DNA of 61,860 bases from Coriobacteriaceae bacterium (GTDB taxonomy: Bacteria > Actinomycetota > Coriobacteriia > Coriobacteriales > UMGS124): NCBI GenBank assembly GCA_019420325.1, contig JAHZHK010000001.1, forward strand, positions 1-61,860. Direction: 5' to 3'. The notes below the pieces were generated by a model. That model searched no databases and was not told the DNA's origin. It saw only the letters and a program-made list of their open reading frames with translations. How positions within the stretch are numbered: the first letter of the stretch is position 1; each line of letters begins with the position of its first letter. Shown one piece after another: positions 8,693 through 18,688 of the stretch. A program made the position numbers and the translations under genes.

Positions 8693-10859
8693 GTGGTTGA
8701 GACCAACGACAAGATGATGAGCGAGGGCTTTATAGAGAGCTTCGAGCGCCGGTATCCTTCTCATATCTTGGAGACGCTTTTGTGCGACCGCACGACGGGA
8801 CACAACATCATCTGGGCCGACAACGAGTACGAGGTCTTGGGCGATGGCTACATGGGCGATGACGAGATAACTGTCGAAAAGATTACGGGTCTCAACTCCG
8901 GAGTTATCAAGCCTCGCGTTGCCAAAGAACTCGAGAAGCAGTCGCAGCGCACCAAGAGCCGTGCCGAGGTGTTCACACCCTCGTGGCTGTGCAACCAGAT
9001 GAACAACAACCTGGACGAAGTGTGGTTCGGCCGTCGCGACGTGTTCAACCGCGAGGCCGACGGCTTGTGGGCTGCAAACGCCGAGCCAGTCGAGTTCCCC
9101 AAGAAGACGGGACATGGCTGGCACGCTTATGTGGAGAGTGCGCGCCTTGAGATAACCTGTGGCGAGGCACCCTTCGTGTGTTCCCGCTACGACACCGTGA
9201 CGGGCCGTGCTCTGCCGGTGGGCGAGCGTATCGGCTTTCTCGATCGCAAACTGCGCGTCGTTTCGGAGAAGGCCAAGACGCGCAAGGAATGGGTGCGCCA
9301 TGCCCTGGATGCCCTGAAGGCGACCTATGCGTTCGAGTACCAGGGAGACAACCTGCTGCTTGCCAGAATCAACGTGTTTGAGACGTTTGTCGAGCACATG
9401 CGTGCCAGATGGGGCGAGGGACCAACGGCGGAGGAACTGCAACAGGCCTCTTGGATCGTCTCATGGAATGTCTGGCAGATGGACGGTTTCACCGATGCCG
9501 TGCCTACGAACAAAGAGGGCGTTGCCGTACAGTCGACTTTGTTCGACTACGACGCGCCGAAACCCGAGCCGGCGCAGCTGTCCCTGTTCGACTTGTTCGA
9601 GGACGACGACACCGTTGGCGACTCCACAGTGGACGACGAGCCGGGGCAGACGGTCCCCCTTTGCGTAATATACGATTGGAAAAATGATGAACCGATTGAG
9701 TTCGCGACTTTGAAGAATGAGGTGAGCGGCATGCTCCAAGCAAGCAAGCAAGCAAGCAAGCAAGCAAGCAAGCAAGCAAGCAAGCAAGCAATTCTATGCT
9801 GTAATTGGCAACCCGCCGTATCAGGTGGCCTGCGGCGACGCTGAATCGGGAAATAAGACTTACGCTGCGCCGATATACCATGAGTTCATGGACTCGTCTT
9901 TTAGAGTCGCGGATAAGGTCGAAGTCATCACCCCCGCTCGATTTCTTTTTGATGCCGGTTCAACCCCCAAAGCATGGAACCAGAAGATGCTCAACGATGA
10001 GCACTTCAAGGTGATGGAGTATTACGCCGACGCTTCGACGGTATTTCCCGGGACGGATATCAAGGGTGGAGTGGCGGTCTCATACCGCGATGCTGGTCAG
10101 GATTTCGGAGCGGTCAAGGTCTTTACTAAATCCGAAGAGTTGAACCAAATACTTCAAAAGACACGTCTATCGTCGGGATATAAAGGGATGGATTGCATTG
10201 CCATTTCCCGAACTGTCTACAGATTGACCGACTGTCTGCATCGTGATTTTCCATTTGCGCACTATGCCGAAGATGATAGTGACGAGAACATTGGCCGGTT
10301 AAGCAAAGGCCATGATTATGATATGTCCACTAACATTTTCGATTGTCTGCCCGAGGTCTTTCATGATGACCGGCCTGATGATGGAGAACAATATGTCCGT
10401 ATATTGGGAAGGGCTGACAATAATCGCTGCTATAAGTATATAAAAGCGAAGTACGTCAATAATCCAAAGCCGTTGCATTCCTACTCCATCGTTCTTCCCA
10501 AGGCAAGCGGTACGGGAGAATTCGGAGAGATTCTTTCGCAGCCAGTACTGACTGCGCCCGGTACGGGTTCGACCGAATCGTTTCTGAGCATCGGCTGCTT
10601 TAAATCTGGGAATGAGGGCGAAAACTGTCTCAAGTATATCTCGACTAAGTTTGCCAGGGCGATGCTTGGGGTTTTAAAGATAACGCAAGATCTTACTCCC
10701 AAAAAATGGGCCTACGTCCCCCTCCAGGACTTCACCTCCTCCTCCGATATCGACTGGTCCTGTTTCATCCCCGAAATCGACCGGCAGCTCTACGCGAAAT
10801 ACGGTCTCGATGAGAACGAGATTGCCTTCATCGAGTCTCACGTGAAGGAGATGAGCTAG
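8693..10859 (+). CDS. Gamma-class N6-adenine DNA methyltransferase (Eco57I/TaqI-like), phase-variable, frame-shifted (OFF) at an internal (CAAG)n tract
   Basis: ORF 8693..9844 carries motif X (AEVFTPSWL) and a motif I-like segment (LEITCGEAPF). It runs through the repeat as QASKQASK... and stops out of frame at 9844. The +1 frame is open through the tract, reads FYAVIGNPPYQ (motif IV) from 9792, and continues as ORF 9825..10859 ending LYAKYGLDENEIAFIE. Deleting one 4-nt unit, or adding two, fuses both halves into a protein of about 720 aa. Confidence 0.75.
9737..9791. repeat. Tetranucleotide simple sequence repeat, 13 x CAAG plus CAA (equivalently 13 x GCAA), inside the methyltransferase gene
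   Basis: Direct count: caag units start at 9737, 9741 ... 9785, followed by caa at 9789-9791. Confidence 0.95.
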
Positions 10860-10861
10860 CC

Positions 10862-16758: not shown

Positions 16759-18688
16759 GGTCGTCGTCTGCTACGACAACGCCCGACCCGGCATGCATCT
16801 GAGTATCGAGGGACAAGACGCTGCCACATTCATGGCGTCAGCGGCGTGGCGCGCTTGGCTGTATTACCCAGCCAGTGCGGTGGAAGGCGTCGAAGACAAC
16901 CGCATCCTGCTCGATGGGGACATGGGTCTGCGCGAATGCCATGAGATGTGCGATGCGGTGCTTGAGGCCGACGGCCATGGTGTCGAGGTCCAGGTAAGCC
17001 GAAGTTTCGACGAGTACGTGAACGCGGGTGAGACGTACATACGGGAGAGGTCGAAGATGGGACTTGCGATCAAGTCCCAGACTGCCGACGGTATCGCCGA
17101 CGACCCCCAACTAGGACCGCTGTTCCAAGAGTTCCGCGATGTAGTGAACTCCGCCATGGTGCGCCCGCTTCGTAACCGTCAGATGCTTGACGCCTTCTTC
17201 ATGGCAACCGTGGGCCGTTCGGCGGATTTCTCGGTGCCCGGCGCAGGTAAGACCGCAACCGTGCTCGGTGTGTTCGCCCACCTGAGGCATCTTGGGCTAG
17301 CTCGCCGAGTGGTTGTCGTCTGCCCCAAGAACGGTTTCGAGTCGTGGGAGAAGGAGTGGGTTGCGACGTTCGGGGACAAACTCCCGCTCGACTGCTTCTC
17401 TCTAGGCGACTCGCGTGTGGCTGCTTTGACCATGGACAGTCGAAAGCGTGCCCTTTCGCTTGATAGCGGGAGATGCAACCTCTTTACGTTCAACTACGAG
17501 TCGCTTCAAAACTATGTAGGCGAGCTGCATCCTATAGTCGCCGACGGAACTCTTCTCGTGTTCGACGAGGTGCATCGGGCGAAGGCAATCGGCGGCAAAC
17601 GTGCGAGGGCGGCGTTGGAGGCATCCAAGGGGGCCGAGTTCGTCGTCGCCCTGACGGGAACGCCCATCCCTAACACGTATCAGGACATCTACAACTTCCT
17701 GCACATCCTCTATCCTGAAGACTACGACACGTTCTTTGGATACGAGCCCGGCGAGCTCAAGGCGCCCGGTCCCAGAGTCGTGGAGGACATCAACCGGAGC
17801 CTCGCCCCGTTCTTCTGCCGCACGAACAAGGATGAGCTCGGCGTGCCACGACCCGAGCCCGACACCATGGTGGAGGTTGAGGCGTCGGCGGACGAGAACA
17901 CGCTGATGCGCGTGCTCGATGGGGTATGTCCCAACGTGCTTGCCTTTACCGTGCGAATGCTGCAGCTGGAAAGCGACCCGGAACTGCTTGGCTCGGCCGT
18001 CGACCCCGGCGACCTCGAGTATGTTCTCGACCAGGTCGGCGACGCGTATGACGACATCGACTACGTGGACTTCTCCCAGACCTTTTACGACGCCATTGAG
18101 CGGAGTCGACCGAGCTCGAAGCTGCTGGCGTGCGAGAGGCTGGTGGCCGATATCGTGGCGCAAGGCAGGCCTGTCGTTGTGTGGTGCATCTTCGTGCGCA
18201 GCATCAGCAACATGCGCAAGCGCCTCTCGGCATTGGGCATATCCGTCGAGACGATCTACGGGGCGACGCCGCAGGACGAGCGTCGCCAGATTCTGGACGA
18301 TTTCAGGGCGGGCAAGTTCAAGGTCCTTGTGACCAATCCCCAAACACTTGCAGAATCCGTCTCTCTGCACATGGTGTGCCATGATGCCGTCTATTTCGAG
18401 TACGGCTACAACCTCGTCCATCTGTTGCAGTCCAAGGACCGCATCCATCGACTTGGGCTGCCGGACGGGCAAAAGACCCGGTACTACTTCATGCGTCAGG
18501 TCTTTACATACCAGGGAAAGCCCTTTTCGCTTGACGAGGCGATATACGGTCGCCTGAAGGCGAAGGAGCAGACGATGCTCGATGCCATCGAGGGCGGCTA
18601 CCTTGAGGGCGGTTATACCGACGAGGAGGACCTGAAGGCGATCTGGGAGCAGCTCCTCGGCGATGCGGCGAAGAGGTTGAGGTACTAG
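16745..18688 (+). CDS. SNF2-family helicase
   Basis: Motifs: SVPGAGKTAT (I), LLVFDEVHRAK (II), VALTGTPIPN (III), VLVTNPQTLAESVSL (V), LLQSKDRIHRLG (VI). ATG at 16745 overlaps the ParB-like gene by 14 nt. The N-terminal about 140 aa are unassigned. Confidence 0.8.
   Translation: MSVPRVVVCYDNARPGMHLSIEGQDAATFMASAAWRAWLYYPASAVEGVEDNRILLDGDMGLRECHEMCDAVLEADGHGVEVQVSRSFDEYVNAGETYIRERSKMGLAIKSQTADGIADDPQLGPLFQEFRDVVNSAMVRPLRNRQMLDAFFMATVGRSADFSVPGAGKTATVLGVFAHLRHLGLARRVVVVCPKNGFESWEKEWVATFGDKLPLDCFSLGDSRVAALTMDSRKRALSLDSGRCNLFTFNYESLQNYVGELHPIVADGTLLVFDEVHRAKAIGGKRARAALEASKGAEFVVALTGTPIPNTYQDIYNFLHILYPEDYDTFFGYEPGELKAPGPRVVEDINRSLAPFFCRTNKDELGVPRPEPDTMVEVEASADENTLMRVLDGVCPNVLAFTVRMLQLESDPELLGSAVDPGDLEYVLDQVGDAYDDIDYVDFSQTFYDAIERSRPSSKLLACERLVADIVAQGRPVVVWCIFVRSISNMRKRLSALGISVETIYGATPQDERRQILDDFRAGKFKVLVTNPQTLAESVSLHMVCHDAVYFEYGYNLVHLLQSKDRIHRLGLPDGQKTRYYFMRQVFTYQGKPFSLDEAIYGRLKAKEQTMLDAIEGGYLEGGYTDEEDLKAIWEQLLGDAAKRLRY

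Follow-up and report, generated by a model that had tools for sequence, protein, structure and literature searches.

Organization of the locus

The stretch of DNA analyzed here, referred to as the window, comprises 61,860 nucleotides (positions 1 to 61,860, forward strand) of contig JAHZHK010000001.1 from the Coriobacteriaceae bacterium assembly GCA_019420325.1. This work is concerned with five same-strand and closely packed genes located at positions 8693-18688, which encode successively a DNA methylase, a nuclease-helicase, a winged-helix protein, a ParB-like protein and an SNF2-family ATPase. A preliminary description of this locus, made from its letters alone, had proposed that the five genes form one undescribed defense system. 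The analysis presented below points instead to a cassette that probably combines two separable modules, a phase-variable restriction-modification enzyme (genes 1 and 2, module 1) and a module resembling the lactococcal AbiR system (genes 3 to 5, module 2 or the triad).

The layout of the five genes was confirmed by open reading frame listing and translation, and the same genes were called independently on the scaffold of the source metagenome. The successive genes are separated by a 2-nt gap and a 4-nt gap, followed by two overlaps of 14 nt, exactly as described initially. All the motifs quoted at that time (NPPY, DEAH/SGTP, IDGNRRL, GAGKT, DEVH, TGTP and QSKDRIHRLG) were found again, and the domain assignments of the five genes stand, the ParB/Srx call for gene 4 being backed by AlphaFold and Foldseek.

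A repeat-controlled methylase and its nuclease-helicase partner

Gene 1 (8693..10859, plus strand) encodes a gamma-class N6-adenine DNA methylase of the Eco57I family (Pfam Eco57I, 5e-15). Residues 14-340 match the PADLOC profile MTase_II PDLC03390 (2e-96), residues 363-719 match the C-terminal part of the 1359-position Type IIG profile REase_MTase_IIG PDLC03626 (2.9e-24), and a further match is obtained with PDLC03375 (3.7e-35). This gene is frameshifted and is read as two open reading frames, 8693-9844 and 9825-10859. Motifs X and I are located in the N-terminal domain (residues 1-340), and the NPPY motif and the target-recognition part lie downstream of a (CAAG)13.75 simple-sequence repeat at 9737..9791 (plus strand), reported by Tandem Repeats Finder with a period of 4 and 100% matches. 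The tract encodes an (ASKQ)n linker placed right before the sequence FYAVIGNPPYQ, the NPPY codons being found at 9810-9821. When one CAAG unit is removed, or when two are added, a single frame of 720 residues is obtained. The methylase is at present OFF, its catalytic and recognition half being out of frame.

The early proposal that gene 1 is phase-variable is supported by this repeat and this frame test, and also by the variable-length (GCACA)n tracts found in relatives at the same junction. In the closest lineage, represented by contigs sharing one identical ParB protein, (GCACA)n occupies this junction before FYAVIGNPPY; the one complete tract consists of 5 units followed by an interrupted unit, and the tracts located at contig ends contain at least 6, at least 12 and at least 15 units. 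Two genome loci contain at least 12 and at least 16 units. Strong evidence for a contingency switch is provided by the presence of two distinct repeat units at a single site and by tract lengths that vary from sample to sample.

Other lesions can be observed in the methylase gene of related cassettes. A common 1-nt deletion in the C-run of the NPPY codons, which gives AATCCCCAT in place of AATCCCCCAT, is found in 18 Collinsella-type loci (L009:2166 among them; loci retrieved for comparison are designated by L numbers). The four downstream genes are intact in 15 of these 18 species-level genomes, gene 2 being broken in L011, L015 and L050. With 7 further loci that carry other frameshifts, the total reaches about 25 of the 38 cassettes in which the methylase gene is readable. 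The gene is intact, for instance, in Bifidobacterium pseudolongum and Arcanobacterium urinimassiliense (L026 and L040), and frameshifted in Collinsella aerofaciens (L009).

Gene 2 (10862..14221, plus strand) encodes a protein of 1119 residues with a T5orf172 (GIY-YIG-like) nuclease domain at residues 20-102 and a superfamily 2 (SF2) DEAH helicase/translocase from residue 128. These domains are detected by Pfam as T5orf172 (1.2e-4, 23 bits for a cut-off of 20) and ResIII (5.5e-13). The protein also matches the PHROG_16 helicase (4e-30) and the middle of the Type IIG profile PDLC03626 (1.9e-12). The candidate GIY-YIG-type residues Y21, Y23, K36-G38, R47, H82 and E97, mapped by hand in the numbering of the window protein, are invariant between actinobacterial and firmicute homologs that are 45-48% identical. 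A long charged helical stretch, judged by eye to be a coiled coil, extends approximately over residues 700-900, and the C-terminus forms a methylase-N-lobe-like region with a motif-X-like NQIFTP sequence and a degenerate motif I.

The products of genes 3 to 5

Gene 3 (14226..15560, plus strand) begins with a GTG codon, the longest open reading frame starting at 14190, and encodes a tandem winged-helix protein of 437-444 residues. This protein has no match in Pfam, PADLOC, NCBIfam or PHROG. Its AlphaFold model, built on a shallow alignment and with a pLDDT (predicted local distance difference test) of 75, consists of repeating helix-helix-helix-hairpin units, and the best Foldseek matches are tandem winged-helix arrays (UFL1, STK19 and SelB, E about 3e-3). 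A search for homologs with the family profile, subject to a word pre-filter, returned mostly close relatives. The proteins encoded at this position, called here A proteins, share only their C-terminal 400-600 residues; the longer forms carry N-terminal Sigma70_r4 and RNA polymerase alpha C-terminal domains, and one of them is named sigma factor-like helix-turn-helix (HTH) protein at the NCBI. Judging from the model, the gene 3 product would be a short member of this variable A family (437-1635 residues) and a putative AbiRa-like component. The idea that gene 3 is short or absent behind helicase-type restriction-modification systems (437 residues here, 628 after Type III, none in L090) was dropped, because the same methylase-helicase partner is accompanied in L092, L093 and L095 by gene 3 products of 911 and 742 residues.

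Gene 4 (15547..16758, plus strand) encodes a protein of 403 residues with a ParB/Srx fold and an AbiRb-like character. No match was found in Pfam or PADLOC searches. The AlphaFold model reaches a pLDDT of 91, and its top Foldseek matches are the CTP-binding domains of ParB and Noc, with pNOB8 ParB (5K5D). The residues N47-D48-R49, G116-N117-R118-R119, E156, Q160 and E164 are invariant in the family. The protein is probably able to bind a nucleoside triphosphate (NTP), and the invariant NDR, GNRR and E..Q...E residues plausibly form the corresponding pocket. This family is large, with more than 1264 relatives among 90%-identity clusters and 834 among 50%-identity clusters at E<=1e-3 (203 of these at E<=1e-30). 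Among 185,579 species-representative genomes, 341 encode a relative.

Gene 5 (16745..18688, plus strand) starts with an ATG, an alternative TTG being present at 16733, and encodes an SNF2-family ATPase of 647-651 residues with an AbiRc-like helicase core (Pfam SNF2-rel_dom and Helicase_C; PHROG_62, 2.6e-63). Conservation is poor over about the first 110 residues, which match neither a phospholipase D (PLD) domain nor any other nuclease, and the first 100 contain no invariant acidic or histidine residue. The protein is 47% identical to residues 306-856, that is to say the helicase part, of the PLDc_2+SNF2 protein of locus L066. This last ortholog (L066:5694-8261) has an N-terminal PLDc_2 domain. 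Another one (L051:8000-10813) has a C-terminal extension of about 300 residues that contains a sequence resembling, by eye, a PD-(D/E)xK motif and has no Pfam match. The extra domains of these two proteins suggest that nucleases have been added repeatedly to this SNF2 helicase.

Independent occurrence of the two modules

Genes 1 and 2 occur as a pair, without genes 3-5, on plasmids of Bifidobacterium, Lactiplantibacillus and Enterococcus. On plasmid p1 of B. longum, the methylase gene, disrupted by IS256, and the helicase gene are the only parts of the cassette. On the L. plantarum and E. faecalis plasmids, the module consists of a protein of 248-306 residues equivalent to the N-terminal domain of gene 1, and of a protein of 1417-1456 residues in which the equivalent of gene 2 is continued by the NPPY/recognition half of gene 1. 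Aligned with the window proteins, these fused homologs cover gene 2 over its full length and continue into the C-terminal half of gene 1. The methylase halves are consequently permuted: on the Firmicutes plasmids (L088:1784-6960; L089:6220-11329) the NPPY/recognition half is fused to the helicase and the second motif X/I lobe is carried by a separate small protein, whereas in the window (8693-14221) the NPPY/recognition half is fused to that lobe. PADLOC assigns both genes of module 1 to restriction-methylase models and files them as a Type IIG restriction-methylase. PDB sequence searches using gene 2, the fused homolog and the family profile gave no match, so that no link with LlaGI/LlaBIII is provided by sequence. 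Module 1 is predicted to belong to a large ISP/IIG-like family of T5orf172-nuclease/helicase/methylase enzymes, for which we found no experimental characterization.

The triad is found in turn without module 1. The order A protein, ParB-like protein and SNF2 protein is kept in the 80 retrieved loci plus others, with the exception of L048, in which ParB is followed by another SNF2 protein of larger size, and of L090. The triad stands alone among housekeeping genes in Vagococcus bubulae and alone on the one E. faecalis plasmid examined, several Clostridia triad loci have no adjoining defense gene, and close copies of the ParB and SNF2 genes are present on about 50 Enterococcus plasmids. In some genomes, a Type III mod-res pair is located directly upstream of the triad with a 2-nt gap or an overlap. 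In Collinsella and Eggerthella, BREX brxA/B/C genes or a gene for a PglZ protein can be observed downstream. One triad neighbors an SNF2-DUF4391-methylase-Res set, and in L066 the A protein, ParB and PLDc_2+SNF2 genes are followed by a Sau3AI/MutH-like endonuclease and a C5 methylase. AbiR-like triads are present in at least 341 species-level genomes, among them those of gut Actinobacteria, Firmicutes, one archaeon and one Melainabacteria. The triad has been joined independently to different methylation-based systems, often in operon-like spacing.

Two particular arrangements were encountered during this survey. The conjugative dairy plasmid pIBB109_AgSa_3 of Lactococcus lactis (L090:3086-11100) has a four-gene arrangement of Type III mod, res, ParB-like and SNF2 genes; the A gene is absent, and the ParB-like/SNF2 genes start with an 11-nt overlap after mod/res. 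A second, divergent AbiR-like module is present in L063, L069, L075 and about 17 other Collinsella loci, and comprises an A protein of 1224-1635 residues where intact, a ParB protein of 410 residues and an SNF2 protein of 642 residues. An unannotated gene encoding 310-364 residues always comes next, often followed by brxA-brxB-brxC or by an A-like protein of about 1070 residues. On one contig, this second module is located about 7 kb from a five-gene cassette.

Since each half occurs without the other, the claim of a single undescribed system is not supported. The alternative that had been mentioned alongside it, two adjacent modules consisting of a methylase plus a helicase-nuclease and of a then unassigned protein plus ParB-like and SNF2 proteins, fits better with halves that are separable.

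The cassette as a mobile block

The five genes nevertheless co-occur as one unit in some 45 genomes, belonging to several genera, so that their juxtaposition is not a chance event restricted to one strain. Every sampled ParB relative of at least 80% identity with enough upstream sequence has the gene 1-gene 2 pair beside the triad. Hosts of the cassette include Collinsella, Bifidobacterium choerinum, B. pseudolongum, Paraeggerthella, Arcanobacterium, Olsenella, Senegalimassilia and others. In most loci, identity to the window proteins is 78-82% for gene 2, 70-76% for gene 3 (down to 54-58% in three loci), 80-94% for gene 4 and 72-79% for gene 5. The cassette is a single lineage that has spread among several genera. 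The C-terminal half of the methylase is the most divergent part, with 45-65% identity to the window, and this divergence fits with a changing specificity. Gene 2 is broken in 5 cassette loci, and the triad is nearly always intact.

The G+C content falls to 0.50-0.62 over the cassette, compared with 0.65-0.68 in the flanks. The location is chromosomal, with genes of the metA side upstream and pepF downstream. When the five genes flanking the cassette in the window were used as queries, none was found beside the cassette in any other genome. A foreign origin of the cassette is supported by this low G+C content and by flanks unlike those of its relatives. The scan of 2.9 million viral contigs yielded at most 2 substantial matches. 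In 28 relatives (L007:13213-14913 and 27 others, including two Bifidobacterium species), a GmrSD-type Type IV restriction gene is located directly after the SNF2 gene; this gene is missing from the window.

Comparison with known systems

AbiR has been known since 2000 and was regarded as a lactococcal curiosity; we know of no established mechanism for it. As summarized in a 2026 review (PMC13064643), lactococcal AbiR is encoded by three genes, AbiRi/a being sigma70-like, AbiRii/b being ParB-like and superimposed on 5K5D, and AbiRiii/c combining an N-terminus like an ATP-dependent restriction endonuclease with a C-terminal SNF2-type ATPase. The three proteins are predicted to form a complex. 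According to the same source, AbiR was originally isolated through its phage-resistance phenotype, lowers phage DNA replication, and requires the LlaKR2I methylase, without which it is toxic. AbiRa/b/c is modeled as a system by DefenseFinder in a 2025 preprint.

The structure superimposed on AbiRb in that review, 5K5D, is also matched by the gene 4 model. Likened to AbiR of pKR223 by its published description, genes 3-5 present the same three-gene order, in which an HTH protein comes first, a ParB-like protein second and an SNF2 ATPase last, and they also adjoin a restriction-modification system with a methylase. The relative L066 reproduces the PLD+SNF2 form beside a Sau3AI-like endonuclease and a C5 methylase; LlaKR2I itself is presumably a Sau3AI isoschizomer. 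The partner differs, being of Type II for AbiR and, in the window, a helicase-type restriction-modification system with an N6-adenine methylase.

Module 1 shares with the Type ISP enzymes (LlaGI, LlaBIII) the logic of a nuclease, an SF2 ATPase, a gamma-class N6-adenine methylase and a target-recognition domain, and its Enterococcus and Lactiplantibacillus homologs hold the parts from nuclease to recognition in one polypeptide of 1417-1456 residues, in the Type ISP order. It differs from them by its T5orf172 (GIY-YIG-like) nuclease in place of Mrr/PD-(D/E)xK, by an extra small N-lobe-like protein that is always present, and by the split and permuted enzyme of the window, in which the catalytic/recognition half is fused in gene 1 to a second methylase-N-lobe-like domain. 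The Type IIG profiles (PDLC03626, PDLC03390 and PDLC03375) are matched, yet restriction and methylation are split over two genes in the window. A similarity with phase-variable Type III mod/res systems is also evident: a methylase with its recognition domain precedes a helicase-nuclease, switching of the entire system depends on a repeat inside the methylase gene, the restriction subunit would rely on the methylase for recognition, and in other genomes mod/res pairs are located upstream of the triad just where module 1 is here. The methylase of the window is however of the gamma-class Eco57I family, where Type III uses a beta-class N6_N4_Mtase, and the nuclease is an N-terminal T5orf172 domain instead of a C-terminal PD-(D/E)xK. 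The dnmA-yeeB-yeeC genes of Bacillus subtilis and Vibrio (PMC9973331), likened by description, combine the same activities of N6-adenine methylase, SF2 helicase and T5orf172/GIY-YIG protein. The last two are encoded by separate genes there, whereas gene 2 unites them; the methylase is of the MmeI-like kind, while gene 1 matches Eco57I, with no MmeI domain in Pfam.

Other systems are more distant. In agreement with the preliminary description, no DUF1998, PLD, PglZ, TGT or PD-(D/E)xK Res C-terminus was detected when the five proteins were searched against Pfam, PADLOC and NCBIfam. DISARM, Dpd, BREX and canonical Type III remain excluded, the SNF2 protein scoring far under the model cut-offs. 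Class 1 DISARM and Dpd both contain a methylase and large helicases, including an SNF2 protein, and Dpd has in addition the ParB-like DpdB. The window, however, is devoid of DrmA, DrmB (DUF1998) and DrmC, and its SNF2 protein scores 26 bits for a DrmD cut-off of 610; as for Dpd, no match to DpdA/TGT, DpdB or DpdC was found and the SNF2 protein scores 22 bits for a DpdE cut-off of 500. Against DISARM, Dpd, BREX, Zorya and Pbe, the generic SNF2 core alone gives matches, at scores far under those that the families require, and the core partners of these systems are missing. The cassette is also unrelated to the DUF499 systems akin to BREX (PMC12839542). The opinion that no named system has such a composition could not be maintained, genes 1-2 matching PADLOC restriction-methylase models and genes 3-5 matching the description of AbiR.

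Surroundings of the cassette

A 437-residue AAA_14/DUF4143 ATPase (7223-8536, plus strand) is encoded directly upstream of the cassette and matches the PADLOC candidate single-gene defense family PDC-S01 (2.8e-54). Because of this PDC-S01-like neighbor, the cassette can be placed within a small defense island. The interval between metA and the cassette contains this ATPase, a PNPOx-like gene and a protein of 821 residues with an N6_Mtase domain (3985-6450, plus strand). The last 210 residues or so of this protein form an N-6 DNA methylase domain, Type I-like in PADLOC, at which the open reading frame stops; its N-terminal 600 residues have no match, and no specificity or restriction partner was seen adjoining. 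An imperfect tandem repeat (7059-7169, period 23/46 bp, 74% matches) is located between the PNPOx-like and PDC-S01-like genes. Further upstream lies the housekeeping gene metA, and the downstream flank encodes pepF, an HD-domain protein and a P-type ATPase. At a larger distance, a protein of 931 residues (35325-38120, plus strand) matches the PADLOC DpdF helicase profile at 2e-28.

The signals proposed to delimit the operon were found in part. The TATAAT hexamer is present at 8591..8596 (plus strand), about 97 nt 5' of the methylase start, and is a weak candidate for the -10 element of the operon, but a full sigma-70 site was not called there by a consensus promoter scan. The G+C-rich hairpin (18741..18773, not assigned to a strand) is real, with 15 pairs of which 11 are G-C, and closes the cassette, in the interval that separates the SNF2 gene from the convergent pepF gene. 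Its T-run, however, sits on the minus strand, so that this structure is primarily a pepF terminator, bidirectional at best.

Proposed function and competing explanations

The reading that we prefer, with a probability of roughly 0.6, is that of a horizontally acquired defense cassette in which a phase-variable restriction-modification system and an AbiR-type module are separable and probably co-transcribed. Module 1 would act as an ATP-dependent restriction-modification enzyme subject to phase variation, with the architecture of a Type ISP or Type III enzyme. The gene 1 product would carry target recognition, methylate an asymmetric site and mark the host DNA; the gene 2 product would dock on it through its methylase-like C-terminus, translocate and cut unmethylated DNA. 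Because the repeat lies 5' of the NPPY motif and of the recognition part, slippage would remove methylation and target recognition jointly, and the OFF state would be safe for the cell, as in Type III. In module 2, the winged-helix protein would act as a DNA-binding or scaffold component, the ParB-fold protein as an NTP switch and the SNF2 protein as a double-strand DNA translocase, the three forming an AbiR-type complex. By the AbiR precedent, this complex may load on DNA and impede phage replication, as a second layer of defense gated in some way by the methylation state.

Several observations weigh against this reading. The SNF2 protein of the window is devoid of the nuclease-like N-terminal domain described for AbiRc, and gene 3 is a short form in which, unlike its longer relatives, sigma70 region 4 was undetected. 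The AbiR-like character of genes 3-5 is inferred from a published structural description and not from an alignment. PADLOC gives no match for genes 3 and 4 or for their Enterococcus and Lactococcus equivalents, an absence that is uninformative as regards AbiR, since its library shows no SNF2-type AbiRc model; no AbiR label is found among the cluster names. Retention of the triad in the many cassettes that have lost the methylase speaks against methylation gating as an absolute requirement in this lineage, and a strict dependence of the triad on this particular methylase is disfavored, since the triad is intact in the methylase-frameshifted cassettes (about 25 of 38). Finally, the compositionally similar dnmA-yeeB-yeeC genes gave no phage protection in B. 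subtilis (PMC9973331).

A tighter association of the five genes can be envisaged, in which they would constitute one obligate hybrid, a nuclease-less AbiR-like motor using the recognition part of the methylase and the T5orf172 nuclease of gene 2. The movement of the block between genera with mostly 72-94% protein identity for genes 2-5, the presence of this cassette around all the sampled ParB relatives at or above the 80% threshold, the translational coupling suggested by the 4-nt gap and the overlaps, and the lack of a PLD or other nuclease domain in the SNF2 protein, unlike that of L066, all speak for such a hybrid, as do the PLD-less triads or pairs positioned right behind Type III res genes in two further lineages. 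If it were true, AbiR-type triads would be widespread add-on modules for Type II, Type III, ISP-like and BREX systems, reading the methyl mark of their partner and blocking the replication of unmarked DNA. A PLD-less triad nevertheless stands alone in Vagococcus, on the E. faecalis plasmid and in several Clostridia loci, and module 1 stands alone on plasmids. Moreover, an intact triad accompanies a damaged methylase in most cassettes and a damaged gene 2 in five of them, which suggests that it is retained for a function requiring neither. We consequently regard the obligate hybrid as rather unlikely.

Two explanations that place the genes outside cellular defense seem far less probable. The cassette could serve the mobile element that carries it, as a counter-defense or establishment module akin to the ParB-methylase-SNF2 polyvalent proteins, with methylation protecting the incoming DNA. 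ParB, adenine methylase and SNF2 domains do recur jointly in polyvalent proteins of phages and conjugative plasmids (PMC5512222), PHROG_62, matched by the SNF2 protein, consists of very long phage helicase proteins, and both modules are common on mobilizable or conjugative plasmids. This explanation is nonetheless held to be very improbable, given that the cassette of the window is chromosomal and placed beside a PDC-S01 gene, that relatives are found beside GmrSD, that the cassette is very rare in viral contigs, and that AbiR was isolated through phage resistance (PMC13064643). The lowest credence is given to a mainly regulatory locus, in which a phasevarion methylase would be accompanied by winged-helix/sigma-like, ParB-like and RapA-like SNF2 proteins acting on transcription or chromosome organization. 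A repeat-controlled methylase is the hallmark of phasevarions, and the sigma70 region 4 and RNA polymerase alpha C-terminal domains of the longer gene 3 relatives point in the same direction. The weak NCBIfam similarity to a 'pilus expression-regulating Snf2 helicase' amounts however to 24 bits for a cut-off of 1100, and the nuclease-helicase partner, the defense-island neighbors, the patchy horizontal distribution and the AbiR precedent favor defense.

Significance

Under the preferred reading of two joined modules, the cassette is not categorically new, as it combines a predicted restriction-modification enzyme with an AbiR-like module. Module 1 is unusual in its permuted methylase halves and in its repeat-driven switching. 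AbiR-like triads reach well beyond Lactococcus and are coupled, in several phyla, to four kinds of methylation-based defense. This pattern agrees with the need of AbiR for a methylase and leads to the testable idea that AbiR-type modules may act as methylation-gated second-line effectors, which is of relevance to restriction-modification, phase variation and phage resistance in gut commensals.

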